Assembly (NCBI GenBank): GCA_030248215.1
Contig: JASANG010003752.1
Location: 310,001 to 374,000 of the forward strand
Length of the DNA stretch: 64,000 bases
Direction of reading: 5' to 3'
From: Enoplolaimus lenunculus
Lineage: Eukaryota
The notes beneath the pieces were generated by a model. The model did not search any database, was not told the DNA's origin, and was given only the letters and a program-made list of their open reading frames with translations. Below are positions 3,901 to 49,213 of the stretch, one piece after another. The position numbers and the translations under genes are program-made. Position 1 is the first letter of the stretch; each line of letters starts with the position of its first letter.

Positions 3901-4625
3901 AAAACCAGTGCACGTGGAAATAACAATTTGTCAAAGACCAAGTTTCCAGTGTTTGAATGATTATGATCCTGCATCTTTGTATGCAGGTACAGGAACATGG
4001 TTAGGAATGGGAATGGAATTTTTGCAGGATATCCTGCCGTAACAGGAATTTCGTTTGAACCCTGGTATTACTGTTACTCTAACTCTGGAGTCAATTTCCA
4101 AGTTTCGGCTCAAAAAGCAATGCTGGTCGATTTTTCAGAGGTATATATGTCGCTGGGGTCTAGTACTACAGTAAGAGCGCGCTACTTACCCACGACCGAG
4201 GTTCCGCTGTTACTTAGAATGCCAATATACAGGACACTGGAAGTCGTATCCACATCCTGTACGTTTGCTAGCACTTCTGTATTGTTCGAGGACGGTATGT
4301 GTAGACGTTGTGTAACTATAGATTTACAACATGTTTTTGTCTCTGATTTTACAGTTTTCTCATTTGTGTATGTAACTGTTTACAGGTGGTAACAGTATCA
4401 AGTGGTATCGTATCTTATCCGTGGGACACCGTTCGTCGACGCATGATGATGCAATCTGGACGCCAAGACATTCTCTACAAAAACACTCTCGACTGTTGGA
4501 AGAAGATTTTACAACAAGAAGGTCCAACTGCATTCTTCAAAGGCGCTCTGTCCAATGTCTTCAGAGGCACAGGTGGTGCGCTTGTGTTGGCAATTTATGC
4601 TGAAATTCAAAAATACATTTACTAA
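960..4625 (+). CDS. ant-1: Mitochondrial ADP/ATP translocase (adenine nucleotide translocator, SLC25A4/5/6 family), 5 exons, 301 aa
   Basis: Exons 960-1082, 1663-1894, 2620-2797, 3014-3146, 4386-4625; all introns GT-AG with consistent phases; 906 nt in total. Carrier motifs [20 protein letters not shown] and YPWDTVRRR, the ANT signature RRRMMM, and [23 protein letters not shown]. Confidence 0.97.
1958..2348. mobile_element. hAT-type MITE in ANT intron 2
   Basis: TIRs CAGGGTGCAACCGGAATT...AATTCCGGTTGCACCCTG, perfect 8-bp TSD TATACTAT, internal (CCGGTT)n subterminal repeats. Confidence 0.88.
3633..3729. repeat. Tandem duplication of a ~50-bp unit
   Basis: TCGCCTATTCCRCAAAGGCCAGARCGCCGTAAACATTTTTACGTCGG occurs twice in tandem. 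Confidence 0.85.
3741..4064. mobile_element. hAT-type MITE (CAGGAA-repeat family) in ANT intron 4
   Basis: Homologous to 31820-32203 at both ends (CAAGGTCCCAACAGGAAC...GAACCCTG); TSD degenerate. Confidence 0.7.
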
Positions 4626-8682: not shown

Positions 8683-10228
8683 TGTAGAATTTGGCGACGC
8701 CAATTTCCAACTTGAGTTTGGAAAAAGGCTACAAATAGGAAATTGAAAACAGAAAATGCGACCGAAAGGCTTAACGGACCCGACCAAAATGTATTGATAA
8801 GAATGTTAGATCTCAACATGCCATGGTCGGCCATTATTTTCTTGATTTGTTCAGAACCGTCCCTACAACTCTCAGGGGCCTCGCTTTTTCGCATAGAAAT
8901 AAAAGAACCTGTAACTCTAGAGCGTATTCCGTGGGTTACCCAAAACACTCTCTATTCTCGAATACCACTATCTAAATCACCAAACTTTATACTTCACTAA
9001 GAGCAGTATACTTCGGCTCACAAAAAAATAAAATTTTCACACACAGCTACGTGTCAGACCCAGGAGTTCTCAATAAAACAGGATACACAAACTTTTCCAC
9101 AATTGAAAAATAATACTCCGACAGGATGTTCAAATACGACACAAAAAACTCCACTGATTACTGAGTAAATTTCGTTGAAAAATTCGTAGTCACTACTTGT
9201 ACCAAACACCACAAACCTCTACTAAGGCCACACAGGCCACCAATTACTACTGCACACAGCAACGAACAAAACTAATTTACCAATAGGCAATGAATGAGTG
9301 AAACGGCAGTGTGTCCTTAAGGACAAACCAAACTCTGCTATTTTCTATAAACTACTTATCTGCGGTCTATACTTCCTTGGCCCAAAAACACTGTCTTCTG
9401 AGACTTTTCCGGAAATTTGACCAAAAATTTTCAGACTTGGGGTTTGCAAACACATCGTAATTCACCCTCAGGGCTTCACCAAAATCAAGACTTAGACCGC
9501 AAAGTATCTAAACAAAACTGCAATATTTTGCACACAGCTATATAGCAATTCCTAACACTAGCACACTTGTGCTATAACCAAGCAAATACAGCCAAGTAAA
9601 CTCCGAAGCTAATAAACGTCAATACGTAATAACAACCGGCGACAACTCTGCCGCGATACACAACTGAAACCCCCTCTCCTCGATGCAAGCGCACGACCCT
9701 TTTATACTCGTAAAATTAAAGGGCAGCATGAACTTTATCGACTTCACAAAACTCTAAAGAATTTCCGAAACTTAAATGATTAATTTAATTTATTAATCTT
9801 ATGGGTTTTTCTAATAGATTTCTAGCAAAAATTTACCACAAAATTATACAAAAAACTTATTTTGACGTAATACTTGGGTTTTTAGAACAAATTTTGAAAA
9901 TAAAATTTGAACTAAATTCTCCGAATTAAATATTTTGACCGGAATTCCAAGTTTCGAAAACAACCCTGATCTTTAAAATTGCATAAAAAGCCAAAAAAAT
10001 CCCATGTTTTGCCGAACATCCGCAAAATTCAAAACAAAATTTTCGCTAAAATTTACAAAAATTTACCCTAAAGCTAAGCTTGACTAGAATCTATAAATTT
10101 TAAAACAAAATTATTCCGCAAATTTAAGTAATTCCACGAACTAATAAATATTTGACTTCCCTCAGCGTTTAAGGTGCTTTCCAATTCTTAGAATTATCGT
10201 ATTTTAAATCTTCCGAAACGGGGCTACA
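8683..10228 (-). mobile_element. Putative solo or truncated LTR of a second family
   Basis: On the minus strand it starts TGTAGCCCCG (10228) and could end CTACA (8683 or 8636). TATAAAAG at 9706-9699. It has the same T/G-rich sense-strand skew as the neighbouring LTRs. No TSD or PBS found, so the left boundary is uncertain. Confidence 0.35.
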
Positions 10229-10504
10229 TAGCCATATTCGAATTTCAAAATTCTAATTTTAGCTCTCAAGCTTAATATCACACGCTTTGAACTTATAGCA
10301 AAAATGACTATCAGAATCTACGAATTATGTTAAAGTTTAAGTGCGTATTGTTTTCCCTTACACCCCGGTTCATTTTATCCAAGAGGCACACTCTCCTGTA
10401 TAATAATTGTAATCCGTACTCAAGCAAAACTTTAAAACCAGGCACCACAATAAATTATACACATGAAGAAGATACATTCAAATTACAGCACCTAAATACC
10501 ATGC

Positions 10505-11868
10505 TGTTGCGGACCACCCAGTTTGTTTTTTTAGAAAAACTTTCGGCCTAAATTTCAAACTAATGATAACTATGTATATTGTTTGCAAGTTTCGACTTTT
10601 TGTTTAACATTACTCCAATAATAACGTAACAATACTGATATAATTAGCCCATCTACGCAGTTTTTGTGTGTTGAAAACAATCTTTTTCAAAGCAGAACGC
10701 AACATTTTATAGTGTTTACGACACCAATAAACGCTTTAATTTTCACCCGCGTTTAGACGTTGGATTAAATAAACTGACAATGTTTTTTATGTAACAATTT
10801 TGCGAAATTAAAAATATTTAAATTTCGATGCGCATTTGACGTTGTTTATGTCTCAATATTGTGCTCAAAGGCTCGTGTTTCGTTAGTTTTAAGCAAATTT
10901 TTTGTATATTTTAGTTTATATAGGCTGTATGTGTCGTCGTGCCTAAAACGTACCGCAACTGGCGTTAATAATGTTTTTTATCCAAACATAAGTTGTTGAT
11001 TAATAATGGTAAGTTGAAAAAGTGTTATTGAACTAAGTTGGAAAACATTAAAGCCAGCATAAACTGTTTAATTTTTTAAATTGCAGTCCTTGCACTTTTG
11101 ATATTGATTATCCTCATTAGCATTTTAAAGAGTATTTTAACAAAAATTCCAGCAATGTTAATGGTTAACAATTTTAAATAGTAATGATGGTGTAGACCTA
11201 AAATATAAAAATATGTTGATAATTGTAGAGTGTTATAATGGTGTCATTAGTGCAAAATGATCTAAAAATTAATAGCTAAAGTGTACTTTTTCAGTACTGA
11301 GAAAAACATTAAAACTGATTTTTGGTTTTTCTTCATTCAAGCGGAAAAATATGTTAAAATTTAATTGCCTAAGAAGTTTAAAAGGCAAAATTTAAAAATT
11401 TTATTATCTTAGAGGTCTAATGAGCCTATCAATCAGGCTTGGAAACTAGAAATTTCGCACTATAAAAGAACAATTTTCAACTAAAAACGGCAGTTGGATC
11501 TCGAGGCGTGGTTGTTTTAAGTCAATTTTGAACAGTTTTATTGGGCAGTTTTTAGTGTGTGCAAGTTTGTTAATCGTTGACTTGAAATTGCTTTTGTCCA
11601 TTATAGAATTGGAGCGTTATTATTTACAATAACATACACTTGGTCAAGTAGTGATACAAATATTCCGTCAATTGTGGATCGAACTTCATTATCGTGTGAA
11701 TCATCTGAACTGTAAGTCAGGGCTGGCTATAGGAATAATGACCAATGTGTTAGTCTCGTTTGCTTAATGGGCGCTGTACGACATATTACATGATAATTTT
11801 TCTGTGGGTGAACTGAGGAGTCTAAAAATCATTAAAAATTTCATAGTCCCTGTATCTGAATCGTAACA
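10505..11868 (+). repeat. 5' LTR (1364 bp)
   Basis: Begins TGTTGCG and ends CGTAACA (imperfect inverted termini); first ~650 bp about 97% identical to 24017 onward by manual count; followed by the PBS. Confidence 0.92.
11461..11495 (+). promoter_or_regulatory. LTR promoter: TATA box and probable initiator
   Basis: TATAAAAG at 11461 with GCAGT ~30 nt downstream; the same arrangement is kept in the 3' LTR (TATAAAAG at 24854, GCAGT at ~24885). Confidence 0.65.
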
Positions 11869-11870
11869 TT

Positions 11871-11893
11871 TGGAGGTCCCACCGAGATTTGAA
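11871..11893 (+). other. Primer-binding site complementary to the tRNA-Gln 3' end
   Basis: TGGAGGTCCCACCGAGATTTGAA, 2 nt after the LTR end, is the reverse complement of TTCAAATCTCGGTGGGACCT-CCA, the conserved metazoan tRNA-Gln 3' arm (recalled from known sequences). Confidence 0.88.
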
Positions 11894-12017
11894 TCAAAAA
11901 TTTTGGAAAAATTTGACTTTCAAATTTTTCTCAGCGGTGGTAGCAGGTATCAAAGTCGGAGTTATTTTAATTTAGTTCGAAATCGGAGATTGAGGTTAAA
12001 AACTCTTGTTAATTTTT

Positions 12018-13943
12018 ATGAAAAGAGCCAGATCGCTAAGTCCAATTCCGGAAGAACCTGCAAGTAATTATTTATCCTATATTAATATTGAAGAGTTAAT
12101 TCCTATATTAGACGTAAGTGTAAGAACACCTAGACAGCATAGATACGAATTTAGAAACATGGATCAACTTCAACAGGATGTCACACACTTGACACAAAAT
12201 GTGAGACAGCTTACTGATGGTATGGCTCATATGAATTCTGCCCTTGCCCAAACTAGGGTAACTGGTACTACTGATACCGATCTGGTAATACATCCGTTTC
12301 ACGGAGGATTAACGGGCCCTGATTTTAACACATGGTTAGAAAATTTTAATTTAATTTGCGCGGCAAAACTGATAGATGATGAGATGAAATTGCGGGTATT
12401 ACCTGCATATCTTAGAGATATTGCAAAGGATATATACGATGGGCTAGCTACTGAGGATAAACGCAGTTTTAAATCAATTTGCACTGCATTAGAGCGTAAG
12501 CTAGCCTCCCCGGAGTTAGCAGTTTATCATGAAGCTGCCTTACAAGGCCGCGAACAAATGGAAGGCGAATCGTTATATTCTTATTTAAAAGATATTAAAA
12601 GAGCGTGTCGACGAGCCTATGCAGGCGAGTCAGAGGAAACGATCCGCCGTTTTATTATTGGGAAATTCTTTTCGGGAATTCGCTCTTCTGAAATTAAGGC
12701 TCAAGTACTTAATGAAATGCCCATGCATACATTGCAACAAGCAGATGATATTACTATGCGTTTAGATATGCAGGCAATAACTTTTCCGAAAACTCAAGGT
12801 ACCCTGGGGATACAAAATTATCTGCCACAACCACAAAATATTGTTAGTACAATACCAACCAATACAGGGCAACAAAGACAGACCAATAATAAACGCATGG
12901 AGCGTTCCCTGGAACACTTGATTCGCACACAACAGGGTTTAATAAACTCTGTAAACCGGGTGCAAAATAAGATTCAGAAGATGGAGAGAAATCATAACAA
13001 AATACGGGGAAATACACATTTTAATTGCAGACAAACAAACCCGCCTAGTCAACAGGCATATAATAGGTGCATTATTAATAATCCTAGAACTACCACAAAC
13101 TCGCCAAGATGTTATACATGTGGCAAGATTGGCCATACTGCCGCAGGATGTCAGATAGCAAGACAAGTACCATTAGATAGCAGTAAAAATTCATACACTT
13201 CAGCAAGAACTGGGTTCAGACCATCTTATAATACTAGACAACAAGCTCAGACATGGAACCCACGACAAACACAGTATTATTCTAGCTCCGCACCCCAACA
13301 AAGTACACAAATACGCAACATAAGTAATGCTGCGGCAGAAGTCGCAGCAGTTTTTAGAAAAACATCAGATGAAACTACGTTGCGTAAAATTCAGAACGAA
13401 TTAGAAGAAACTAAGAAGAAATTTGACCAAGTAAGCAAGGAAAAAGAAGTATTACTAAAACAGAAAGCAATGTTAGTCGAGAAAATTTATCCTGAAGTTG
13501 TAACTTGTGTTGGAATGGTAGTAATTGGTGAAACTAAGGAAAAACAGATAGACCAAACCATGAAAGAAAATCGGAGTGAATCGTTGACTAAAGGAAGCAA
13601 TTTGAATGATTGTAATTTAAATTGCTTGCCCAAAAATCAAAATTCAATTACGTCGGAGATCGGAATTAGTGGTGGTGATAATTCTCAAACAATAGACGAT
13701 ATTAAAGAAAAGGAATTAAGTGTAGCAAAAATTACGAAGCGATATTGCTCACAACCAGATATAAACAAGATAACTTTTAATATTGCAGTTCCTCAAGAAT
13801 CTGTAGCTCCTAAAAGTAAATGTTTTCAGTTTTATAATATAACGGCAAGCAAAGAAAACTATAAATTTTCTGGATATCGTTGGAACAGCCTTATCAGGGT
13901 TTCGAAAGAGGCTTGCAGATCAAAGTTAGCCTCGCATAAATAA
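12018..13943 (+). CDS. gag: Gag (capsid-like domain, CCHC nucleocapsid, coiled coil, C-terminal extension)
   Basis: FNTWLENF...LPAYLRDIAKDIY, MHR-like LQGREQMEGESLYSY, zinc knuckle CYTCGKIGHTAAGC. First ATG at 12018; ends at a single TAA, after which the same frame stays open. Confidence 0.9.
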   Translation: MKRARSLSPIPEEPASNYLSYINIEELIPILDVSVRTPRQHRYEFRNMDQLQQDVTHLTQNVRQLTDGMAHMNSALAQTRVTGTTDTDLVIHPFHGGLTGPDFNTWLENFNLICAAKLIDDEMKLRVLPAYLRDIAKDIYDGLATEDKRSFKSICTALERKLASPELAVYHEAALQGREQMEGESLYSYLKDIKRACRRAYAGESEETIRRFIIGKFFSGIRSSEIKAQVLNEMPMHTLQQADDITMRLDMQAITFPKTQGTLGIQNYLPQPQNIVSTIPTNTGQQRQTNNKRMERSLEHLIRTQQGLINSVNRVQNKIQKMERNHNKIRGNTHFNCRQTNPPSQQAYNRCIINNPRTTTNSPRCYTCGKIGHTAAGCQIARQVPLDSSKNSYTSARTGFRPSYNTRQQAQTWNPRQTQYYSSSAPQQSTQIRNISNAAAEVAAVFRKTSDETTLRKIQNELEETKKKFDQVSKEKEVLLKQKAMLVEKIYPEVVTCVGMVVIGETKEKQIDQTMKENRSESLTKGSNLNDCNLNCLPKNQNSITSEIGISGGDNSQTIDDIKEKELSVAKITKRYCSQPDINKITFNIAVPQESVAPKSKCFQFYNITASKENYKFSGYRWNSLIRVSKEACRSKLASHK

Positions 13944-16940
13944 GATAAATCAGAATATCAAATCGAACATTTTGCCAATACAGAGATATTAGACGATTAT
14001 GTTGTCAAAAAATTGTCACCTTCGATAAAGATCAGTGACTGTAACAACATATCAGAATGCTTCTTAATTACCAACAAAGCCTACAGTGAATGTTTCATTT
14101 GCCCTATAACTTGTTGTTGCGAAATAATTGATATTGAATTATATAAATTACAGGCAGATCCATTTTATTTGACAGACCGATCAAATCAAACCAGTGAAGT
14201 GGTCAGGTGTGACGTTCAAATCGCATTTTCACCGTCACAACACCTACATCTCATGGAACAACCGCAATGTGAGTATATAAACATTACACCTAAGAAACGG
14301 AATTACATAAAAATCAGATTCTATCACGGGGAAAATTTTAAAATTAAGAAATTACAAACAACAGGTATAGGCCCACCAATGTATACTAATACTGACATAT
14401 TACGATTAAGTCTCACCGACCTTACTATATTAGGCCCAGAGTTGGTGCTGGATAATTTGGTCAAGCGAGCCAAATTTCCAGAACCATATTCAAGTAGTTA
14501 TAATCATGGGATCGGTTTTATAGATAAACTGAATATGTATGGATTGTCATATAATGATTATGTTGATACAAAAAGGAAGTTGTCAAAGGAATTATGTGTT
14601 ATTCAAAAAACATTTTTTGACGAATCCCGGACGCCCCCTAGGAGACCTTCAATTAAATATGATTTAGCAACTACTACTCCTAAAAATTTAGAAGGTACGC
14701 CATTAGTTAAGCCACAAAAACCTATAACCAAATTTATAACACCATGGCTGAGCGTGATATGTTTACTTACCATAATTAATACAGTAAATGCCACGATGGC
14801 TGGAGGTTTAAAGGAATTTCACTCCCAAATTTTTCCCGGAGTAGGAATGGGCATAGTGCCTAGCGGTATCCTCCTTACGTCAGAACGTTCAGAGTATGTC
14901 CCGATCATGTTGCATATGCAGCATAGCTTTTACAACTTGAGTGAACCCCCCAGGCTCATTAATCATTCAGACTGTCCTGGTCGCTTCAATTTCATTGAAT
15001 TTACTCACCGATATTTGCAAAAATTTGATTTAGAATTTTCCCAAACCTTTGACCCCAGATTTTACGAAGAATTGTTGAGAGGCGTTTGTCATGATAATCA
15101 AAATATTTGCACGTTTCCAAAAGCAGAACGAAGCAAACGTTTTTTGCCCCTTTTGTTGACAGGATTAATGTCACTGGCAGGCACGGGGATGGGGATTGCA
15201 AATAGCCTCCAGCTTTCTTATCTTCAGCCAAAAATTAGTGCATTAACGCAAGCGGTACCAATACTTGAACATAAAATTGGAATACAAGCACGAGCCATCC
15301 ACCAACTTTCCATTCAAAATCAACAAATTTATACTTTTACCCATAAAGCAATGACATTTTTGGACCACATGGTTGCACATATTACGTGCGAGTTAAAAGG
15401 GTTTGGTCAAGAAATGCACCAAATTTCCCAGGCAAATTTGTTTGTTATGCAAATAGAACGGTTGGTGAAATCTGTTAGTACCGCAAGCTTAGAGGGAAAA
15501 ATAGATTCAGAAATACTAAGTGCCACCCAGATTACCAGATTAATAAGAGCAGAACCTGCTCTACGAAAAACACTATATGAACACGAACCTAGCCTATTCT
15601 ATCAATTTGTTACGGCATACCCAGTAATAGTAAATATTGCCCAACTAAAATTTGGGATCATTTTAGAAATCCCCAAAATTACTAAAAGAGATATTCTCCC
15701 TTTGTTATCTATCTCTAACGTTGGCTTCAATATACCCGAGAAAAATATTACTAACCGCATTAAGTTTCCTACTTATATGACTTATGATAGTCATCATGGT
15801 GTGAACTCATATCTAGAAGTTGTTCCCTCCCTTTGTAAAAGGCTACCGGGATTATGGTATTGCCCGTTGCAGGCTGTACCTCGTTCAGAAGCTAATGAAT
15901 TCCTAACGGCAATCGCGAGATTTGAACAATGGAGTAAATCATGCAAAGTGCAGGTTACACAATTTCGGCAAGGTAACACCTTAGATACTACTCGAGTTGG
16001 TGTAATGGTCCGTACGAGTGATAGATTTGCAAAAGTCACTACTAACCGAGAAGTCCAATTTTCATCACGGAGCGAGAGACTCGCGATACCGCCCTATGGA
16101 GTTTATTTCTTCCCCCATGAGAAATATTCTTTAATAACTGTTGGTGATAGGATAATCACGTCCACAGTACGTGATATACAACATTTTACTTTCAACATTA
16201 GTAAAATTCCCACTCCAAGTTCAAACTTTTCGGGACTCCCTTCTCCACATTGGATCGATATGCTTGATGCCGAGTATCACACTAATCTTAGTCGGGAATT
16301 AACCCGTAGCCAAATCGACCACACTTTACTACCCGTGACCGCGCAACATTCGTCGTTAATGCATATAATCATTGCATTAATCTGTGCGTTAATTGTAATA
16401 TTGGTAACCACATGTTTTAAGAGACGTGACGATATTTGGCGGGTTGTTAAAGGTATTTGGGATAAAAAGGAATATTGTGAATTTTGTTGCAAGAGGAATA
16501 AAAGTAGGTTTAGATATATTCGGCAGGAGATTGAACCAGAGGAGTTACAAGAATTTACAGCACCCTCGCTAAGTATCGTAAGCGCTGAAGAGATATCTCA
16601 CAAGACTGTAGGAATAAATTGTCCATCAAGCCTTACTTCATCTATAGTGCCTATCCGAGTTCGTCCACCAAGGGTACCAACCCCAATGCCTATATTAGAG
16701 ACAAGATTCTCCAATTTTCTGAATAGTTTTAAGGCTCCAGGAAAAAGTGAGACAACAGGAGAAAATACCCTGATAGGACGTATGCCTAATGAACAAAATA
16801 CTTCAGAACAACCTACATGTTCCAATTTATTATCCGGTGCTGCAGCAGCAGTTACTAGGCATAGATATTTTACGGCACTTGGGTACCATAACAATAAACT
16901 ATGCAAAAAGTGGAGCTTTCATAGAGGGAAACAAAATTAA
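13944..16940 (+). CDS. env: Cys-rich unknown domain plus envelope-like class I fusion glycoprotein (baculovirus F / errantivirus env-like), in the gag frame
   Basis: Internal signal sequence WLSVICLLTIINTVNA (~14745-14792), furin site RSKR (15129-15140) followed directly by hydrophobic peptide FLPLLLTGLMSLAGTGMGIA, heptad region, GKIDSEILS and IILEIP motifs, 6 N-glycosylation sequons, TM helix (16356-16418) followed by KRR. Confidence 0.85.
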   Translation, partial: DKSEYQIEHFANTEILDDYVVKKLSPSIKISDCNNISECFLITNKAYSECFICPITCCCEIIDIELYKLQADPFYLTDRSNQTSEVVRCDVQIAFSPSQHLHLMEQPQCEYINITPKKRNYIKIRFYHGENFKIKKLQTTGIGPPMYTNTDILRLSLTDLTILGPELVLDNLVKRAKFPEPYSSSYNHGIGFIDKLNMYGLSYNDYVDTKRKLSKELCVIQKTFFDESRTPPRRPSIKYDLATTTPKNLEGTPLVKPQKPITKFITPWLSVICLLTIINTVNATMAGGLKEFHSQIFPGVGMGIVPSGILLTSERSEYVPIMLHMQHSFYNLSEPPRLINHSDCPGRFNFIEFTHRYLQKFDLEFSQTFDPRFYEELLRGVCHDNQNICTFPKAERSKRFLPLLLTGLMSLAGTGMGIANSLQLSYLQPKISALTQAVPILEHKIGIQARAIHQLSIQNQQIYTFTHKAMTFLDHMVAHITCELKGFGQEMHQISQANLFVMQIERLVKSVSTASLEGKIDSEILSATQITRLIRAEPALRKTLYEHEPSLFYQFVTAYPVIVNIAQLKFGIILEIPKITKRDILPLLSISNVGFNIPEKNITNRIKFPTYMTYDSHHGVNSYLEVVPSLCKRLPGLWYCPLQAVPRSEANEFLTAIARFEQWSKSCKVQVTQFRQGNTLDTTRVGVMVRTSDRFAKVTTNREVQFSSRSERLAIPPYGVYFFPHEKYSLITVGDRIITSTVRDIQHFTFNISKIPTPSSNFSGLPSPHWIDMLDAEYHTNLSRELTRSQIDHTLLPVTAQHSSLMHIIIALICALIVILVTTCFKRRDDIWRVVKGIWDKKEYCEFCCKRNKSRFRYIRQEIEPEELQEFTAPSLSIVSAEEISHKTVGINCPSSLTSSIVPIRVRPPRVPTPMPILETRFSNFLNSFKAPGKSETTGENTLIGRMPNEQNTSEQPTCSNLLSGAAAAVTRHRYFTALGYHNNKLCKKWSFHRGKQN

Positions 16941-19900
16941 ATTTGGAAAAACAAGCAGGCAAAAAGTCTCATTGCCTGAGAGTATTACAATACCCCCACA
17001 GACGGAAATAATAATACCATGCAGTACAGATGGATTAACAGCAAATGTGGAGCATGTTCTATTTGAGCCGCACATTATGCTACATGCAGAGTACAACTTA
17101 CTTATAGCACCGTTACTATTGTCTAATCAATCAACCATACACATACCGGTACGCATAGTTAACCCATGTAGATATCCGGTGAAACTCTATAAGAATCTTA
17201 CATTAGGACAATTAGAAGCATTGGATAAAAGTTTTATTGTGAATGCAACAGGATACAATGCTAAAGAAGCCAAACTCACTTTTTTGCAGCAGGCAAACTT
17301 TGGTGACCAGCTTTCAATAGAAGATTTAAAACAGTTGGAAAAGCTTTTGGAAGAGTTTTCCGATGTTTTCTCAAAAAGCGAATATGATTTGGGAAAAGTA
17401 ACAGCTGTAAGTCATAAGATTGAAACTTTGGACGCACATCCAATCAAACAACGACCATACCGAGTTCCTCTAAAATTGAAGGAACCGGTTGAATAAGAAA
17501 TTAATAAGATGTTAGACATGAACATCATTGAACCGTCGGTTAGTCCTTGGGCAAGCCCAATCGTTGTTTTACGAAAGAAGGATGGAAAATCACTTCGAAT
17601 ATGTGTAGATTATAGAAGGTTAAATCAACATACAGTCAAAGATTGTTACCCACTACCAAACATAAATGATTTGTTGGATACAATTGGAAAAGCGAAATAT
17701 TTTAGCGTAGGTGATTTAGTATCAGGGTATTACCAAGTACCAATGGAGGAATCTTCCATTGAAAAGACCGCGTTTGTTACACCAATGGGTCTGTTTCAAT
17801 ACAAAACTATGCCGTTTGGGCTCTGCAATGCCCCCGCGACGTTTCAGCGATTATTAGAGGCTACATTGCGTGGACTGCAAGGTCGAGTCTGTACTGTCTA
17901 CATTGATGACATTTTGGTATTTTCAGAAACATTCATTCAGCATTTAGAGCGTCTCCGTCAAGTGTTACAACGTTTGCGCGAAGTAGGGTTAAAATTAAAA
18001 CCGGAAAAATTGCTGTTTTGCAGTACACGAAGTCGAGTATTTGGGGCATATAATATCGAGTACTGGTTTACGGCCAGATCCTAAAAAGACAATACAAGTA
18101 CAGAATTTTCCCATACCGACAGGTTTACGTAGTCTACGAGGTTTTTTGGTTTGGAGGGTTACTACAGACGTTTCATTAAGGACATTGCAAAAATTGCTAG
18201 TCCGTTTCATTGATTACTTAAGAAAAATAATGCTTTTGATTGGAATACAAACTGTCAGCAAGCATTTGAAACTTTAAGAACCAAGCTAACATCACCTCCA
18301 GTGCTTGTCATAGTTAATCCAAACCTTCCTTATATACTTGAAACAGATGCAAGTGGTACTTGCATAGGTGGGGTACTCTCGCAAGAACACGACGGTAAGA
18401 TAAACCCAATAGCTTTCGGAAGTAGAACATTACAAAAAGCCGAAAGAAATTATAGTATAACTGAATTAGAAGCCTTGGCTGTCGTGTATTTTGTGAAACA
18501 TTTTCGAAATTATTTATATGGGCAAAAATTTAAACTTATAACTGATCATTCTGCCTTGAAATGGATTTTAACTAACAAAAATAGTTCAGGTAGGTTGCAA
18601 CGTTGGGCGCTTACGCTAATGGAATATGATTTCACCATTGAGCATAAACCTGGAAAACGCATGAGTCATGTAGAAGCGTTGTCTAGACTTGAAAATGGTG
18701 TTAATGTTGACAGTCATAGTGATACCGAAACCGAAAATATTCATTTCGCTTACGCAATTGGAAAACCATCAACAACACCTTCTAATACTTTAGCAGAAAC
18801 ACAATCAAGGAGTCAAGAACACGATAAGGTTAACTCAGATAGATATGAACGGTTTGCTGAAATGCAGGCAAAGGATCCATATATTAGCACAATATTACAA
18901 TATCTATTGCAAGGTAAATTACCTGATGACGAAAAGACGGCTCGTTATTTAACACTTTCGAGGCCAAGATTTTTCACGCATAATAATTTGTTATATCACC
19001 ATTACCCTACTCTCCGTGCAGGACCTCGGATAGCTTGGGAGCAGTTGGTCGTACCAGAAAATATGAAGCAGGAAATTTTATCGGCTCATCATGATGATGT
19101 TGTCGGAGGACAGCATTCTGGAATCTCCAGAACATACCATAAGATACTCCCAAAATATTATTGGGAAGGAATGTATCAGGATGTCGTCAAATGGTGCAAA
19201 TCTTGTGTTGATTGCTGTACTCGCAAGCATGGACCACATCGGCCTAATGCACCGTTAGTTCCTATTCCTACAAACGAGCCAAACCACACCTATCATGTAG
19301 ATGTTCTAGGACCCTTACCAGAATCATACAATGGCAACAAATACGTTATCATATTTGTTGACCGGTTCACTAAATATCCAGAAGCAATTTGTACCCGAGA
19401 TCAGAAAGCGTTTACTATAGCCAAACTATTTATGACGGAAATAGTATGTAGACATTCTGCACCTTTTGCATTAATAAGCGATAATGCTCCTAATTTTAGA
19501 AGTGAATTATTGGACGAAATTACCAAAATTGCAGGTACTCGAAAATTTTTTACTACCCCCTATCGTCCACAGACCAATGGAGTTGTTGAACGAATTAATG
19601 CCACATTCATGCAAATGATAAGCCAATATGTGGATACAGCTCAACGAACTTGGGATGAGTTTGTGCCATACGCATGCTTGGCTTATCGTATAAGTGTAAA
19701 CGAAACCACTGGATATAGTCCTTTTAGTTTGGTTTATGGCAGAGACCCTAGACTACCAATAGATATATCTTTGCCAGTATCAAACCGAGGTTACATTGAT
19801 GAGGATGACTATGCTAGAGATGTTAGATTGGCTTTATATGATGCATGGCAGTTAGCTGCAGAAAACATAACTAAAGCGCAACAAGTAATGAAGGAAAGAT

Positions 19901-20229
19901 ATGATCAAAAAGCTATTGATCCAAGTTATAAAATTGGCGATAAAGTTTTGTTACATACCCCTTTTTCAAAGAAAGGAAAAACCCATAAACTTGCCCATCA
20001 GTGGCAGGCTCTTTTTGAAGTAATTGATATTAAATATCCAAATGTAGTAATTAAGTCATTAACAGCTAGGCAACCTAAGCCATTGAAAGTTCATGTAAAT
20101 CGTATAAAGCCTTTTTACGATTCACCCTCTCATATTCCTATTGCAGGAACCCTTACTAAGAGTGATAGCCGTGTAGTACACGAAGCAGATCCAAATTTAG
20201 AAGCAGAAATAAGTAATGATTCAGAGTAA
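16777..20229 (+). pseudogene. pol: Disrupted pol: protease C-terminal remnant, spacer domain, reverse transcriptase, RNase H, integrase
   Basis: LLGIDIL; RT motifs SPWASPIVV, RICVDYRRLN, MPFGLCNAPATFQR, YIDD; RNase H ETDAS / ELEALA / TDH; integrase HHCC and D-D-E (HVDVLGP, ISDNA, GVVER). Lesions: TAA 17494, +1 frameshift ~18010, -1 frameshift ~18148, TGA 18211. Confidence 0.95.
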
Positions 20230-20429
20230 TGTTAATATTATAATGTTAATTTTATTTTATTTCAGAATCGTCAACAATCGTCAATCGCTAACGTCGAGCT
20301 CGTTTCAACCTACACCCAGCCCACACCTATAAACAATCACATAAAGTCCAATAGGACGCTTTACTATATTCAATTCTATTGCACAATATACACAACACCG
20401 CACTTTAAACACTTATAGCAAATGACAAC

Positions 20430-23400
20430 ATGGCAACATACACCAAGGACATTCTAGAGTTCGCAGCAACAGTATGCCTTGCGGACATCCTACCGGAAGA
20501 ACAACGAAAAAACTTCCAGAATTGGCATGGAGTAAATGCCTATATTCCAATGGACACTTTAGTAAAATTTGCCCCGAGATATCCAAATAACGTAGAAGCC
20601 ACGATCACTGATTTTATTTCACCGTCCAAAGCCACGTCCTACAGAAACTTTTGTATGGTATGTTTATGTCCGATCCACGATTCGCTACACTTGGTTTCGA
20701 CACGACATCTGTTTATGTCGAGTAGCCAATTGTTCCGCCTGAATGTTACCGACGAACGAAGACTGCTGTTTCAGCAGTGGATAAAAGAGCACGGATTATA
20801 CCATGAGCATAAAGTACTGAAGAATCTGAACGCCGTGTTAACGTTTCCCAAGATTTCCTCCACAACAGCGACCGCTGTTGGGATGCATGCCCAATTATCA
20901 AATCAAGGGTACGATATACCAATTGTCTTTGGAAACTCGGCAACTGGATCCCAAGACCTAACGTTCCATTTGACGATTCGAAACAAAGGTGCCGTTAGCA
21001 TAGAATACATAGGCGTCCATACAATAGTGAACGGTGCAAATGGTAATAAGTTGCGTCCGATATTTGAAATGCCAACGAACTGCACGCACCAAGAAAAAAT
21101 AATGATAACAATCGAATCACAAACACCTGGAATACAATTCTACACTCTCCAAGTATGGGTTGAAGCCAAACAGTTCGGCAAGAACTCTGTGCTATTGCCC
21201 TTATGGTGCGAAGTACGCTGGAACTGGCACGATTACCACTTAGAACACTGTATTGCACGATATCTCGAAGACATTGCCCGAGTTCGACCCAAACAGACAG
21301 ATGGTGTCGCATTATCGTCTATACCAGACAGTCTATTTAATCCACCATTGATACCAACAGGAGAAGGATCGGAACAACGTGTTTGTAAGCCAGCTCGGTT
21401 TACTCAATCGTGTTTTACTCCATACTTCAAGGCCTGGGAACGAAAAGATACAACAATGCGTAATCATAGTGAAATCGCAGTACGCTCAGTGGACATCCAG
21501 TCACATGGTGGTTTCGATGATCACAATGTACAAATAAAAGACATTGAAGCAATTCTAGACAGCGACGCAGTGATTACAAAGGACAACTTAGGACACCGAT
21601 GCTTGGCCGAAGTCATTGGACAAACACAATACGACGAAGATGTTCCTGAACGATGTTCTATAATATCAACGCAAATTTTACCAGAAGACGAAGTCAACGA
21701 CATAGGGACCTTACAATCAGATGAGTCCGCAATATATGTGAGTTCCAAAGTGCCGAGCCGAGAATATCAAAATATTAGAAGTAAATCAATGACAGATCGC
21801 CTTCGCATTGTACATCCACGGTGGGATGCCAAATTACCAGCTTATGTAGTAGGTGAAAAAAACGATGATGATCAAATGGTGACAACCGTGCAATTGAAAC
21901 TTAACGCTGGACTGAAGAAAATCGTAGAATCCATGGTTGAAAGCGAATCGAGGCGAGTTGACACAAATCAGCCGTTCCTAATTCCGATGCCAAGTATAGT
22001 AACTGGATACCTTTTGGCACTGTATAAAATGCTTCTGATCAATGAAGACGATGAAGCAAAAGTAGAGACAGCCTCAGCAAATGTCGAAGATAATACGGAA
22101 ACGTTTCGGGACAAATCTAATGTTAACGACAACAGTATCACAAATTTATCAGAATTATCCGAACCGGATATAACATTAGTCGATGAAATCAATGAAAGTG
22201 AATGTACAGCGTCGATAGAAACATCCGATATAGATAATCCACCACCAACAAAAGTGACAAAATCAAATTTTACAACCGAACGACTACAAGCCTCGCAAGA
22301 TGAAACGATGACCAATGAAGACGACCAATCATCCATCAAAAAACGATTCAAGTACGACCTCAAACGAAGTTGGCACAAGATCATCAATCACATGTTTGGA
22401 CACGATTCACCAGCCAAACAATATGAAAAAAGGACATTACCAACAACAATATACAATTATACCGAACAGTTGGATCCAGAACAAAAACAAATTCTCGACG
22501 CAATAATAAACGGTGATCCGATAATAGCTTGTCAAGCTCCACCTGGTACCGGAAAGACACACGTTATCGCCCTAATAATGGTTTTAATGAACACCGTTTT
22601 TCCAGAAGAGCGATATCTGTGTATAGCTCCGACGAATGCAGCAGCAAACGTTTTAGCTAAGAAGATTCAATCGTATTTTAAGAAGTTGTTTGGTCAAGTT
22701 CCACCACAATCGTTATTACGTATGGTTCGAGAAGGTTACCCAATCGATGAACTGGGCGAATTAATACAACATTCGAATTTCGTGGCTGCCGATACCGAAA
22801 GTAGCGACATACAAGCTGATTCCCGAATACCTGAACACAAGATACTGGTTACAACAGTGGATCTAGCAATTATGAATCTACTTAATCATCGAAAAACACT
22901 CGCAGACGCAGGACTATTCAAACTTCTTGTAATCGATGAAGCTGCTTCGGTGGATCTACCGCGAACGTTGTTAGCAGCCTTATTGGTTTCAAACGGTCAG
23001 ATCGTGATGCTTGGCGATACAAAACAGTTGCCAGCCTACATAACATCGCCAAAACTAAAATCAGTCGCTGGAGACGAATCAGGAATGGAGTTCATTAGCA
23101 GAGCAGCCAGTAAAGCGAAAAGAGTAAAACTTAAAACACTTAAGCGAAATTACCGAAGTGTGGCAAGTATTTTGGGCCCACCAAGCGCAATCATATACAA
23201 AGACGCACCACTGATCGCTGAAAATCATGATCAATTGAGCCAACAAAATGAGCAGTTGAATGACGCTACAAATGGAATGTTAAACACCGTCTTATTTCCA
23301 GCAAGGAATGGCGTATCATTCGTGCATGTTGAAGGAACAATGATTCGGCATGGGAGTAGTTTATACAACATCGCCGAGATCCATCACGTACTCGAAATAG

Positions 23401-23975
23401 TAAATAGAATGATAAAATTAGGGATTCCGCCCCATAGCATCGGAATAGACGCAACGTACGCGGCGCAAAGTAAACTGTTAAAGAAACTGCTAACTAAACA
23501 ACAACCAGAACTACGAATAGGGTGTGCGAACACGTGGCAGGGCAACGAATGTGATTTCATGATCATTAGCCTCGTACGGTCCGACGGATTTTATGATACA
23601 TACGGTCAAGAATGTGATCAAGGATTCCTGCACGATTTCCGACGACTGACAGTAAGCACAACCAGAGCAAGGCGGGGACAAGTGATCATTGGAAATACAC
23701 TGCGATTTCTATATCACCCCTTAATCATGGAAACACTTCGAGCATGTCACGCCTACGATGGATTCATAAACGACTATCAGACTGAAACACCCCAAATAGT
23801 TCAAAACCGAATTCAAATCGCGTTAGCAATCACAAACTACATACATTTACACATATGTGACAGTTGGCAAAAAGATCCGGATAACTGTAACAACGACCAT
23901 ACTGTTGGAGCAGCGGCACAAAACCCCAATCAATACTACTGCACGGATCATACATCGATTCCAGAAAGATTTTAA
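20430..23975 (+). CDS. Superfamily 1 helicase, UPF1/DNA2/NAM7/MOV10-like, 1181 aa, intronless, inside the LTR element
   Basis: Motifs in the correct order: I QAPPGTGKT (~22533), Ia IAPTNAAAN, II VIDEAA (22935), III LGDTKQLP, NYRS, NIAEI, IGIDATYAAQ, V TWQGNECDFMIISLVRS, VI GFL..RRLTVSTTRAR. N-terminal CxxC-x8-H-x5-H. Confidence 0.93.
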   Translation: MATYTKDILEFAATVCLADILPEEQRKNFQNWHGVNAYIPMDTLVKFAPRYPNNVEATITDFISPSKATSYRNFCMVCLCPIHDSLHLVSTRHLFMSSSQLFRLNVTDERRLLFQQWIKEHGLYHEHKVLKNLNAVLTFPKISSTTATAVGMHAQLSNQGYDIPIVFGNSATGSQDLTFHLTIRNKGAVSIEYIGVHTIVNGANGNKLRPIFEMPTNCTHQEKIMITIESQTPGIQFYTLQVWVEAKQFGKNSVLLPLWCEVRWNWHDYHLEHCIARYLEDIARVRPKQTDGVALSSIPDSLFNPPLIPTGEGSEQRVCKPARFTQSCFTPYFKAWERKDTTMRNHSEIAVRSVDIQSHGGFDDHNVQIKDIEAILDSDAVITKDNLGHRCLAEVIGQTQYDEDVPERCSIISTQILPEDEVNDIGTLQSDESAIYVSSKVPSREYQNIRSKSMTDRLRIVHPRWDAKLPAYVVGEKNDDDQMVTTVQLKLNAGLKKIVESMVESESRRVDTNQPFLIPMPSIVTGYLLALYKMLLINEDDEAKVETASANVEDNTETFRDKSNVNDNSITNLSELSEPDITLVDEINESECTASIETSDIDNPPPTKVTKSNFTTERLQASQDETMTNEDDQSSIKKRFKYDLKRSWHKIINHMFGHDSPAKQYEKRTLPTTIYNYTEQLDPEQKQILDAIINGDPIIACQAPPGTGKTHVIALIMVLMNTVFPEERYLCIAPTNAAANVLAKKIQSYFKKLFGQVPPQSLLRMVREGYPIDELGELIQHSNFVAADTESSDIQADSRIPEHKILVTTVDLAIMNLLNHRKTLADAGLFKLLVIDEAASVDLPRTLLAALLVSNGQIVMLGDTKQLPAYITSPKLKSVAGDESGMEFISRAASKAKRVKLKTLKRNYRSVASILGPPSAIIYKDAPLIAENHDQLSQQNEQLNDATNGMLNTVLFPARNGVSFVHVEGTMIRHGSSLYNIAEIHHVLEIVNRMIKLGIPPHSIGIDATYAAQSKLLKKLLTKQQPELRIGCANTWQGNECDFMIISLVRSDGFYDTYGQECDQGFLHDFRRLTVSTTRARRGQVIIGNTLRFLYHPLIMETLRACHAYDGFINDYQTETPQIVQNRIQIALAITNYIHLHICDSWQKDPDNCNNDHTVGAAAQNPNQYYCTDHTSIPERF

Positions 23976-24003
23976 AGGTAAGCCATTGCAGGGCAAAGGC
24001 TTT

Positions 24004-24016
24004 AAGGAGGGAGTGG
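24004..24016 (+). other. Polypurine tract
   Basis: AAGGAGGGAGTGG immediately before the TG of the 3' LTR. Confidence 0.85.
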
Positions 24017-25217
24017 TGTTGCGGACCACCCAGTTTGTTTTTTAGAAAAACTTTCGGCCTAAATTTCAAACTAAAGATAACTATGTATATTGTTTGCAAA
24101 TTTCGACTTTTTGTTTAACATTACTGCAATAATAACGTAACAATACTGATATAATTAGCCCATTTACGCAGTTTTTGTGTGTTGAAAACAATCTTTTTCA
24201 AAGTAGAACGCAACATTTTATAGTGTTTACGACACCAATAAACTCTTTAATTTTCACCCGCGTTTAGACGTTGGTTTAAATAAACTGACAATGTTTTTAT
24301 ATGTAACAATTTTGCGAAATTAAAAATATTTAAATTTCGATGCGCATTTGACGTTGTTTATGTCTCAATATTGCGCTCAAAGGCTCGTGTTTCGTTAGTT
24401 TTAAGCAAATTTTTTGTATATTTTAGTATATATAGGCTGTATGTGTCGTCGTGCCTAAAACGTACCGCAACTGGCGTTAATAATGTTTTCTATTCAAACA
24501 TAAGTTGTTGATTAATAATGGTAAGTTGAAAAAGTGTTATCAAACTAAGTTGGAAAACATTAAAGCCAGCATAAACTGTTTAATTTTTTAAATTGCAGTC
24601 CTTGCACTTTTTGAGATTGATTATCCTCATTAGCATTTTAAAGAGTATTTTAACAAAAATTCCAGCAAAGTGAATTTTATCAGTACTGAAAATAACATTA
24701 AAATTGATTTTTGGCTTTTCGTCACTCAAGCGGAAAAAAAAAGTATACTAAAATTTAGTTGCCTAAGAAGTTTAAAAGTTAAAATTTAAAATTTTATAAT
24801 CTTAGAGGTCTAATGAGCCTATCAATCAGGCTTGAAAACTAGAAATTTCGCACTATAAAAGCAGCAGTTTTTAACAAAATTTAGGCAGTGTTTAGTCAGG
24901 TTTGGGCGTGAAAGTTTCATTTAGTTATTTTTTCTGAAAAGATTTTCCGCTTATTATAGACCGCGGGTCGTTTTACTGAGTGCATCAAGTTGTCAAAGTT
25001 TTACAATTATCACGTCTATGGTTTTCGTTGCGTCTGATCAACGTGTACCGAAATTGAATTGTAAGTCAGGGCGGGTACTAAGTGTAATAGTTAATTGTCA
25101 TGGACTTGTTTGCCTTATGGGCGCTTCACTACTTTTTCTTCGTTTATTTCACAAAGGCTCTACTGCCATAATTAATAAATAAAAAAAATCAATAGCCGTT
25201 ACCTTGTAATCGTAACA
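24017..25217 (+). repeat. 3' LTR (1201 bp)
   Basis: Begins TGTTGCGGACC after the PPT and ends AATCGTAACA like the 5' LTR; lacks ~123 bp present at 11156-11278. Confidence 0.88.
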
Positions 25218-28111
25218 CACCTATGATTAACTGGGTGAAACGTGCTACATACATTTCAAAATACAATCACTGGTCAACCCAAAAATTTTTAAAAATAGAC
25301 TAAAAACTGTCAAACGCAACCAGACTTTGAAAGTTTATGTTTTGAAGTTGTTATATCTTCTAAGCGTAACCCGTATTTAATGACCATATTCTCAAATGTG
25401 TATGTAGGACCTATTACCATTTGGTAAAAGGCACGATGTAAACCGGATATCCGTTTTCGTTTCCGGTAAAAATAGGTGTTCGTTTCCGTTATAGGAATAC
25501 TGGAAATTCAGTTATTAATGCGACGAAAATTAGTTACAAATCACGTGTATATTTCCGCAATTTTTTATTGCAGAAATGGCGCAATAGTTCGAAATGAAAC
25601 AAAAGCCTGGCGAATATATGCACGCCTCAATAGTGTGGCTAAAAATAAAATATCTTTGAAACTTTTAAACTTCAGTATTTGTTTTCCATTTCCGTTATTT
25701 TGGTCACTATCCGTTTTGTTATTTTTACTATCCGTTGACTCCCTGGTGATAGTTCCTGTGACTTTGGACCAAAAATTGTGATATGTTCAAAATTTTGCAC
25801 AGATTTGGTACTGTTTGCAAGCATAACGACGGACAAAATTTTTTCACACATACCAAACAGCGAATCCAATTGTTAAACCCTTTTCCGAAAACTTTAAGGT
25901 AAACTACATTCAGAGCATAACCCGCAGGTATGTTGCATTTTTAAACGCTGCACGATGTACAAAATTGCGCCCGTACAAAATTCGAACTAAAAGTTAATGC
26001 TATGGGTTTTCAACATAACCGGTAAATTAACGGTAAAATTAGTATTATGAGCAAAGTCAATATAATATCACGAAGCCACCACTAGTAAATGTAAGCCTTT
26101 TCTAAGTGCACTTGACCTTAAAGCTTTGTTTAAGCTAAATAAAAAATTCCTGCCCGACCATGTTTAGGACTAAATCGCCGAATGCGGAATTAAATTTATA
26201 CAATGTCACACTTTATATTTTGACAATAACGATTACACCTGAAACTAAACTGATACATTGCATCAATACCCATATATTTTTTGATAGCGCAAGAGCGATT
26301 TTTTGAACGGTGTCAAAATAATTTAATGCATTCTGAAAATTGAATCTAGCCAAATTGTAATGTATTCTTTTCTGAAAACAGATCTCGCAGCCAAGCAACT
26401 AAAAACAACCAGAGCACAACAAAATCTTTCCACACGAATATCAAAACATGCCAAGTTTCAATAGTTGCAAACGAAAACAAGGTAATAATGTTGTTCGAAA
26501 ACTGATAAACCTTCTCCGATAAATATCCTCAAAACAATTGTAAACATAATGTTTTCATAAACAATTTTGTTTCGCAATTCTTTGAAACAATTAGAATTGT
26601 GTTTTCGGCACCCCATACCAGCAACACCTCAAAATCAGGTTTGCAAATGCGAGGCCACCCACCTCGGCTTTATTATTTTTTGGTCTACATATAAATAAGT
26701 AGAAACATTGTTCACATAAGAACTGAATATTAGATTCTGGTTAACGGAGCTCAGAAACATATCCAAATATCCGGTATAGGACACTGCAAATTATCGATTA
26801 ACGTGATTAGTGAAGGTCGTTATTCAAAAGAAAATGGAACAATTAAAATGTCGTCATGCCACATTTCCTAAAATGTAACTGGATCCTATAGCGTGACCGA
26901 CCGCATATTAATAACCGAATACCGGAACCGGGTGAGAACTTTTTCCGGAACTGAATGCTAACCGGATATAATGTGTAAATTTTTGCTTTGTTAGCACAAT
27001 TTATATTTAAATGAACGTTACTTTCTGTGTTAAAAATTTACTGGTCAGCAAAATGTTTAGTATTTTCACATGTGAAAAGCAGTGATATTTTGGAACAGAA
27101 AGAATAGTAAATATTTGGTATTCATACTCACATTCAAATGATACGAGTTTGTTGCTTCAAATGAACCTCTTGAATGCCGGCGCTCAATATAGCTAGTGAT
27201 AACTGATTACGTACACAAAGATATTTTTCAAAACTGCTACCAACCTCAAAAATGTAAACAGATTGATTAAATGACCGTCATTTATATATCAACAATGAGG
27301 TAAACATTTTCGAATGTATTATTTGAGATACTGAAATTGAGGCAAACAATTCTCGAGTAACAAAATTTCTAGTTTGAGAAAATTTATTGTTGTTGAGGGT
27401 TGTTTGTGCCGATGCGAACAATTTACATTTCTGGTTGTATTTGAAGCTTGGAACGGTATGAGTTGAGCAAGCAACTGCTGATTTCGTAAAGATTGTATTT
27501 TTAAACAAGCCGAGCTGAATAATATTTCTGCTTTTGTTATTTTGCGAAATGTTTAGCCTTGGACAACAAAACCAAAATTCTACGTGCATACGTGGAAAAC
27601 ATCCGGAACGTCTGGTAGTGCCTATATGATCAATCGCGCAAATTATTAGAGGTTTACGGCAGCAAAAAGCTTTCAGGAAAATATACAAAAAGAAGTTGAT
27701 CGTAAACATTTCGTACTTGCCAAAATTACTCATCAGACGGCTTTATGGCTACCGTTATGTTTTTAAGTTTTTATTTGAACAAAAGAATTTCATTATTGTT
27801 CATAGCATAAAACTTTGGATATTTTAAAGACAATTTATACATTGCATGTTCAAATGGTAATTCAGCAGTAGTCATATAATACAAAAAGAAATTTAGTCAA
27901 ATTTCTTGATCACGTTAATAGTGAAATTTGCAGAATTACTTTACTTTTTTACTATAGTTTCGTCGCAAAAAATACATTTATTCGTTGCATTCTATAATCA
28001 TTCGTCTGTTATTGACACAGATTAGGGCCCTCACAAGTGTCGACTATTTTCCGCCGTAATCTACTAACCAGTTTGTGTAATATACCATTTAGTAATGTTT
28101 GCTATAATCCT

Positions 28112-30163: not shown

Positions 30164-30524
30164 CCTGACATCCTAATGAAAACTGTTCTGTTGTCATTTT
30201 TTACCAACTTTGTTGCATCTGTATTTGTAATTCCAATACCGTAACAAGACAAATTATTTCTAAATAAAGTTTTTAACAATACGATTCTAATTCAGCGTTA
30301 AACTGATTTTCATCCAAGACGTCGCATAGCGATTGTTCATGATCCACGGACTACATGTGAGCTGGTGTTGGTCTGAAATGATTGTTGAACAATACAATTA
30401 ATGACAGCGCTACCACCGCCTGCTGTGCCCTAGACATCGTCGTTTGATTTTGAATCATTTGACGATCCAACCTTCTTTTGTACACGGAACGCAGCCAGTT
30501 AAATACTCTTGCCTTAATATGAGT

Positions 30525-30707
30525 GGCCCATGTTACTTCAAGGGGCGTCCAGATTTCTGGTGGGCCTATAAAAGTGTAGGATTTAATTCTATGACATTTT
30601 CTGCTTAGGCTTAGGATTAGGAATACGTTTTTACAACGCTTAGGCTTAGGCTTAGGCTTAGGAATACGCGTAATTCCACAGTTACGCCCCTTAAAGTAAC
30701 ATTGGAC
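30525..30707. mobile_element. Merlin-like TTAGGC MITE (opposite orientation to 51089)
   Basis: GGCCCATGTTACTTCAAGGGGCGT...ACGCCCCTTAAAGTAACATTGGAC with internal TTAGGC repeats. Confidence 0.75.
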
Positions 30708-49020: not shown

Positions 49021-49213
49021 GGCTAATGTTACTATGAAAGGCGTAACAGTAGATTAAGCGTATTCCTAAGCCTAAGCCTAAGCGTTCCAAAAATGAGTTT
49101 CTAAGCCTAAAAGCCTAAGCCTAAGCCTAAATAAAAAAATGTAATCTAGAATCTAAACCTACTCTTTTATAGATCAACCAGAAACCTGGACGCCCCTTAA
49201 AGTAACTTGGACC
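49021..49213. mobile_element. Merlin-like TTAGGC MITE (same subfamily as 51089)
   Basis: Colinear homology to 51089-51268; TSD not recognisable. Confidence 0.75.

Follow-up and report, generated by a model that had tools for sequence, protein, structure and literature searches.

Structure of a Ty3/Gypsy element with an internal env frame

The window analysed here is a 64,000-nucleotide stretch of the Enoplolaimus lenunculus assembly GCA_030248215.1 (contig JASANG010003752.1, positions 310,001 to 374,000). It contains a long terminal repeat (LTR) retroelement that spans 14,713 bp on the + strand (10505-25217) in the order LTR, primer-binding site (PBS), gag, env, pol, helicase, polypurine tract (PPT), LTR. 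The original prediction, made from the sequence alone, had proposed a 14.7-kb Gypsy element carrying both env and a helicase, and the LTRs, PBS, PPT and protein domains bear this out. The 5′ LTR (10505-11868, +; 1364 bp, TATA-like box at 11460) and the 3′ LTR (24017-25217, +; 1201 bp, AATAAA at 25174) have TG...CA termini and the predicted lengths of 1.2-1.4 kb, and their tails differ. The PBS (11871-11882, +) was recognised by a sequence match, its reverse complement being the 3′ 12-mer of tRNA-Gln, and the PPT (24004-24016, +) adjoins the 3′ LTR. The hallmarks of the Metaviridae are therefore present, namely TG...CA LTRs, a tRNA PBS, a PPT and a pol order of protease (PR), reverse transcriptase (RT), RNase H (RH) and integrase (IN), the protease being represented by its C-terminal half only. 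No tRNA genes were found in the window.

The gag frame (12000-13943, +) encodes a Retrotrans_gag domain (amino acids 135-219) and a CCHC knuckle (amino acids 370-384), and ends at a TAA codon in frame with env. The env frame (13944-16940) is open for 998 codons and lies between gag and pol, where it had been predicted. Env proper (14721-16412, +) begins with an internal signal-peptide-like hydrophobic stretch (residues 260-289 of the frame), followed by a furin-type RSKR at residue 396 (15129), a hydrophobic, Gly-rich segment resembling a fusion peptide, a long helix and a transmembrane (TM) anchor (residues 798-828, near 16350); the Env tail (16413-16940, +) contains a break at 16855/16856. 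The pol region (16822-20229, +) encodes the C-terminal half of the protease, RT, RH and IN. It is interrupted by a stop before RT (17494-17496), and by frame changes at about 18000-18150 and a further stop (18211-18213) in the link between RT and RH. The catalytic motif of the protease was absent from the window in any frame, and alignment of a related polyprotein, P0014, with the pol frame starts only at the final residues of the protease.

Downstream of pol, an intronless open reading frame (ORF; 20409-23975) encodes a helicase of 1181 codons from the ATG at 20430 (20430-23975, +). It lies behind a splice-acceptor-like TTTCAG (20260-20265, +; a sequence call) preceded by a pyrimidine tract, and a splice-donor-like GTAAGT at 11712 is kept in both LTRs. 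To judge from these signals, the helicase was rightly placed in the usual spliced 3′ slot, and the sizes originally given for the open frames (about 1000 codons for env and 1181 for the helicase) also agree with ours.

The predicted extra Cys-rich domain was likewise recovered, as a Cys-rich, beta-rich region of about 400 residues (13500-14730, +) that straddles the Gag/Env stop and sits between Gag and the Env signal peptide. No homolog of this orphan domain was found. ESM Atlas gave matches of 0.77-0.79 to Preplasmiviricota and Nucleocytoviricota clusters and to PF21507, under the tool's lead threshold, and a viral-contig locus search with the domain returned no relative. An origin as a captured polinton or virophage minor capsid protein was considered and set aside, being unsupported by Pfam and the PDB; PHROGs gave one unknown family (E 0.01).

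A defective, mosaic copy of a probable multi-copy family

The element was compared with contigs from three DNA runs (X1, X2 and X3), using 40 of 1452 matches. Over env, pol and helicase, the contigs' depth is about tenfold that of the flank. In X1, contigs of 480-1700 nt over pol and helicase reach depths of 343-401, against 37.9 for the right-flank contig; in X2 the corresponding values are 125-138 and 14.5. Long collapsed contigs at such depth point to roughly five to ten nearly identical copies, an estimate weakened by the loose relation between contig depth and copy number. The family is probably multi-copy and young. The recent activity originally proposed is thus supported by the depth and near-identity of the run contigs, and not by the divergence of the U3 regions from which it had been argued.

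Divergence from the run contigs differs between the two ends of the element. The left part shows 13/550, 11/482, 16/623 and 14/608 differences and the right part 1/1117, 0/1176, 0/1015 and 0/524, with the switch located within integrase. Among the best-supported rows for the left part, 29 of 57 listed differences fall on third codon positions (p 0.005), which indicates that this part comes from a sister copy that experienced some selection in its past. High-depth X1 contigs carry extra sequence at 16855/16856 that is missing from the window copy, and they also differ from the window at the RT breaks. Because these contigs read otherwise at both places, the pol breaks and the 16855/16856 gap represent damage to this copy. 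The original prediction had implicitly treated the element as intact; with its Gag/Env stop, pol breaks and half-missing protease, the copy is defective and mosaic. Of 12 listed differences from other copies in 16450-16855, eight are at third codon positions when read in the env frame, and one when read in the pol frame. The env frame is therefore constrained up to the break, as would be expected if env ran on into protease.

The LTRs are equally uneven. Over their first ~650 nt, 634 of 648 aligned bases are equal (14 differ, plus 3 gap columns), close to the ~3% U3 difference reported in the original prediction. The two sequences then part at a 124-nt indel, and alignment of the final ~370 nt gives 234 matches, 85 mismatches and 115 gap columns, a result that nevertheless beats 200 shuffles (score 92 versus at most 16.5). 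Directly at the ends of the element there is no 4-6 bp target-site duplication, and the flanks differ; we take a 6-nt match to the right flank, found 10 nt left of the 5′ LTR (10489-10494), to be chance. Given the mosaic locus, the unlike tails and the lack of a target-site duplication, the two LTRs are not the pair of one insertion. The U3 difference consequently dates nothing, and dating by LTR divergence was rejected. The locus is likely recombinant: an older, decayed copy contributed the left part and a young one the right part, joined either by ectopic recombination or by the assembler. The tails themselves (11470-11868 and 24863-25217), which lie 3′ of the TATA-like box, are much more diverged, although they retain the GTAAGT donor and their last 10 nt, and both fall in bins of multi-copy depth. 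One U3 may be common to two LTR-tail types.

Some of these features, namely the missing target-site duplication, the unlike tails and the change of divergence inside integrase, would also arise if unrelated elements had been misassembled or nested, such that env-pol and helicase never travel together. We consider this very improbable. The divergence switch is crossed by a 1702-nt contig of depth 400.6 (18250-19951), depth remains high over 19924-20800, and an X3 contig with 10% divergence (20067-20498; 44 differences in 435 nt) bridges the integrase stop and the helicase start. Moreover, the join connects two members of the same family within a gene that they share. Since contigs of env, pol and helicase all reach about tenfold depth and integrase is bridged to helicase, these genes are not parts of separate elements, and their assignment to one Ty3/Gypsy family is right. 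What survives of the misassembly that the original prediction had allowed for is the join of two family copies, real or made by the assembler. No single run contig across the whole element was present among the matches listed. The run contigs also reveal internally deleted derivatives, with joints such as 15897-18802, 17186-18805 and 21177-21549, and in X3 the helicase depth exceeds that of RT, which hints that some non-autonomous copies have retained the helicase.

A predicted F-type Env in the internal slot

A structure model of Env, based on an alignment of 73 sequences, reached a pLDDT of 80.0 and a pTM of 0.69. When this model was searched with Foldseek, the respiratory syncytial virus F protein ranked first (E 1.5e-16) and the human parainfluenza virus 3 (hPIV3) F protein tenth; among viral models, lispivirus glycoproteins came out on top (E 2.9e-24). 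A profile of the 73 env relatives matches hPIV3 F at 1.1e-18. This modelling assigns Env, as a prediction, to the class I, F-type fusion proteins.

A phmmer search with the window env against 1.84 billion representatives gave 110 matches, every one beginning at a residue number of at least 256. Thirty of these were scanned: nine have a protease Pfam match (behind env in eight), six a Gag marker before env, and three both. P0014, of 2531 aa, has the full order Gag-Env-PR-RT-RH-IN zinc finger. By their domain content, F-type Gag-Env-Pol polyproteins exist beyond the window element. An F-env profile matched 0/120 long pol matches, and viral-contig locus searches with env or with the protein P0125 gave no relative. 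In metagenome contigs, an env sub-alignment identified 2 loci among 85 pattern matches, of 2.9 and 1.0 kb and so too short for neighbours. One further Env(F)-PR-RT-RH polyprotein, P0006, is annotated in a bacterial metagenome-assembled genome and is probably an animal retroelement contaminant.

The order of the genes is itself not new. GAG-ENV-POL elements have been catalogued in Nematoda, Bryozoa and Platyhelminthes, where they are stated to carry only HSV/gB-type ENV (Chary and Hayashi, eLife 2026, PMC13524379). In the nematode rows of the supplement to that survey, 36/36 elements have ENV_HSV and all are from Chromadorea; 15 Enoplea assemblies were included, and none is represented among the 36 elements. 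The window element shares with these errantiviruses its Ty3/Gypsy affiliation, gene order, multi-copy state and tRNA-Gln primer (8/36 nematode rows), the identical 12-mer being given for four Caenorhabditis elements in supplementary file 1. It differs from them in its F-type env and its helicase, a word that the survey's main text uses 0 times, and its LTRs of 1.2-1.4 kb contrast with ~140-470 bp in the 17 nematode rows with LTR coordinates. In-frame env between gag and pol is also described for the planarian elements Burro and GYPSM1 (Arkhipova and Yushenova 2019, PMC6431247). A candidate new lineage, as originally proposed, is thus too strong a claim: the original prediction had named a catalogued family with the same gene order as evidence against novelty, and in these two sources that order is largely on record.

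Burro offers a parallel for the env itself. According to passages of PMC6431247, it shares with the window element an internal in-frame env, extra Gag-Env domains and accessory ORFs, and its env has homology to gypsy Env and to mononegavirus fusion proteins, so that Burro may already exemplify an F-like env in the internal slot. It differs in being >30 kb long and in carrying apoptosis and ubiquitin domains, and no helicase is named in those passages. F-type errantiviruses such as Drosophila gypsy and rotifer TelKA, as described in PMC13524379 and PMC5408684, have in common with the window Env a furin site, a fusion peptide, a heptad helix, a TM anchor and a paramyxovirus-F-like fold. Their env, however, is a separate ORF after pol, whereas here env precedes pol and a helicase takes the 3′ slot. 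The canonical errantivirus order, gag-pol-env, in which env takes the spliced 3′ slot, is accordingly not that of the window element.

The nematode endogenous retroviruses (NERVs) provide a further comparison, since a citing sentence describes env before pol in a nematode metavirus (Sacco et al. 2022, doi 10.1099/jgv.0.001739), as in the window element. The window element would work like a NERV; it is not classed as one, because it lacks the gB-type env. Its env is predicted to be F-type, compared with gB-type envs in the surveyed nematodes (PMC13524379), and its helicase motifs are of MOV10 type.

An alternative is that the element belongs to the NERV/GAG-ENV-POL lineage and exchanged a gB-type env for an F-type one. 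In NERVs, gag, env, pro and pol are said to form a single continuous ORF, to which some add a Upf1-like helicase ORF. The helicase would then represent the same acquisition, serving general RNA handling such as unwinding or protection from decay. The gene order and PBS documented in PMC13524379 agree with this, the latter being the 12-mer of 4/36 nematode elements and tRNA-Gln that of 8/36. The best pol matches include P0261 and P0278, each a Gag-Env(gB)-Pol protein in one ORF, and TM-like stretches separate the knuckle from the protease motif in six of the 42 pol matches that have both. On the other side, phmmer detected no similarity between the window env and the gB-type envs of pol neighbours (E > 0.2), the helicase motifs are MOV10-type and not UPF1-type, and the pol trees, from which named NERV sequences were absent, give no starred group for the window. 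We regard an exchange of env as doubtful.

Two of the pol trees were built on subsets (58/123 and 37/123 rows), and no named reference RTs were among the pol matches. RTs of F-type Gag-Env-Pol polyproteins are 36-46% identical to the window RT, less than those of env-less or gB-type neighbours at up to 61%. In the RT tree, monophyly of the window element with three F-type Env-Pol proteins was neither recovered nor rejected (p-AU 0.37). A bolder version of our reading sees in these proteins an unrecognised Ty3/Gypsy branch with an F fusogen inside the polyprotein, represented also by several metagenome polyproteins, of which this family is armed with a captured MOV10/ERI-6/7 silencing antagonist and reached its NERV-like layout independently; this we likewise judge rather unlikely. 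Six pol neighbours have an env slot between the Gag knuckle and the protease (P0254, P0257, P0261, P0265, P0278 and P0294): two slots are gB-type by Pfam, two are weakly related to these and two contain hydrophobic remnants only.

A MOV10-like helicase and its proposed role

The helicase comprises an N-terminal part of ~670 residues and a superfamily 1B (SF1B) core (AAA_11/AAA_12) in which Walker A, DEA, GDxxQL, NYRS and motif VI are intact. Its best matches of solved structure are Upf1 and SMUBP2, and by its core it is a UPF1-like SF1B enzyme. The closest relative, P0128, shares 42% identity with it across 96% of the core (E 3e-92, versus 6e-27 for the next match) and is encoded on a 14,749-bp contig. 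Among 106 cores, an N[YF]R[SA] motif is present in 2/2 element rows, 20/20 MOV10-side rows and 0/84 others (82 Q-type, 2 unparsed). A 13-residue loop before the motif-VI GF similarly occurs in 2/2 element rows, 10/10 parsed MOV10-labelled rows and 0/50 parsed others; both features were defined as MOV10 characters from these cores themselves. Trees place the helicase on the MOV10 side, with 98 SH-aLRT in the first tree (which omitted 18/123 matches through failed motif cutting) and 84/95 in a careful tree of 44/106 rows. Taken together, these characters make it quite probable that the helicase originated from a host MOV10/Armitage/ERI-6/7-type gene.

Other searches added little. A single-sequence model of the N-terminal part was unusable (pLDDT 33), and ESM Atlas gave no usable match for residues 1-560. 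Locus searches with the helicase pair found nothing in viral or metagenome contigs, and the helicase profile matched none of the env and pol matches.

Insect retrotransposons are known to carry an SF1 helicase of plus-strand RNA viruses, fused to element proteins and with weak activity in silencing suppression (Morozov et al. 2019, PMC6338049). The window element resembles these in bearing an accessory helicase, but its enzyme is of the cellular UPF1-like SF1B type and has its own ORF. Silencing of LTR elements and viral env genes by ERI-6/7/MOV10 is on record for C. elegans (PMC7084138). Because of this silencing and of the weak suppression by retrotransposon-borne helicases in PMC6338049, we prefer an anti-silencing role, in which the helicase might act by analogy as a decoy or RNA remodeller against a host MOV10-type pathway, and which we put forward tentatively.

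The helicase could instead be a passenger, a retrocopied host gene that brings the element no benefit or is kept for that of the host. Viral SF1 helicases on retrotransposons are argued in PMC6338049 to serve the host, and a role in the window element is argued from sequence and analogy. Against this stand 1181 open codons with all core motifs, a position exactly behind the acceptor and between integrase and PPT, and the similarity to P0128, which suggests a separate helicase lineage that has long been conserved. A passenger is, in our view, improbable.

Functional copies of the family, as suggested by relatives and topology, would make one polyprotein, Gag-X-Env-PR-RT-RH-IN, where X denotes the orphan domain. 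The internal signal peptide would direct the Env ectodomain into the endoplasmic reticulum and free Gag-X, while the TM anchor would hold PR-RT-RH-IN in the cytosol, where it would stay attached to the Env tail until protease cleavage. Pol would thus reach particles via Env and not via Gag, and fusion would be primed by a furin-type cut at RSKR. Such a polyprotein would include env and leave the spliced 3′ slot vacant; here that slot is occupied by the helicase, which would be translated from an RNA spliced from the LTR donor at 11712 to the acceptor at 20265, the slot of env in ordinary errantiviruses.

These results favour, with a probability of about 0.6, a model in which the copy in the window is broken and likely recombinant and belongs to a Ty3/Gypsy family, likely young and multi-copy, that combines gag-env-pol with a 3′ helicase; its env is predicted to be F-type, and its helicase, likely captured and of MOV10 type, would aid escape from small-RNA silencing. 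The layout is known; the element is set apart by its F-type env, its likely MOV10-derived helicase and the orphan ~400-residue domain. Of these, the env and the helicase were left untyped in the original prediction. No description of an LTR element with an F-type internal env and a MOV10-like helicase was found in a literature search that was thin on subscription papers.

Several observations weigh against this model. A narrow profile of the eight closest envs reaches F proteins at E 4e-4 only, and the alignment behind the Env model included distant F-like rows that could have pulled the fold. In the RT and RH-IN trees the lineage of the element is unplaced. On the MOV10 side the helicase occupies a long branch, a position that carries no star in the careful tree; an approximately unbiased test did not reject its grouping with five nematode SMUBP2-side helicases (p 0.168), profile scores hardly split MOV10 from SMUBP2 (367.6 versus 352.4), and HELZ-type helicases were not knowingly among the sampled rows. 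Its N-terminal part gave no Pfam or profile match to the MOV10 Ig-like, helical and beta-barrel domains. Splicing and expression of the helicase are predicted from sequence alone, and its anti-silencing role is an inferred one. The TAA between gag and env is known from this copy only, and a disturbed target-site duplication might still underlie the 6-nt flank match. All run contigs come from one organism, two samples and one study, possibly the source of the assembly itself, and env and helicase were not found together in a second genome in the viral- and metagenome-contig searches.

Should the helicase prove to be a MOV10-type gene captured and employed against silencing, it would be a clear case of a host restriction factor turned into a counter-defence by a retroelement. 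If the internal env is truly F-type, the Gag-protease slot would take either class of fusogen, contrary to the gB-only statement for GAG-ENV-POL elements in PMC13524379.

The DNA around the element has nematode features. The window contains 76 matches to TTAGGC/GCCTAA arrays versus 12 to TTAGGG/CCCTAA, TTAGGC being the canonical nematode repeat (PMC10760449). A dispersed repeat family with TTAGGC arrays occurs in both orientations (45553-46068, 53534-53710, 49021-49221, 51089-51276 and 30524-30674). To the left of the element lies an intron-containing ADP/ATP carrier gene (Mito_carr; 1519-4625, +) with TTTCAG-like acceptors, whose product we assume to be nematode-like from its wording. To the right are a 329-codon intronless ORF (32872-33861, +) with membrane-like segments and no Pfam match, presumably akin to a divergent ionotropic receptor, and exons of a sodium:solute symporter (SSF, E 0.006; 35383-42272, -). 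High-copy repeats lie on both sides of the element, at 9000-10187 and 25441-25720, where the summed depth in X1 reaches up to 2400 and 6200.

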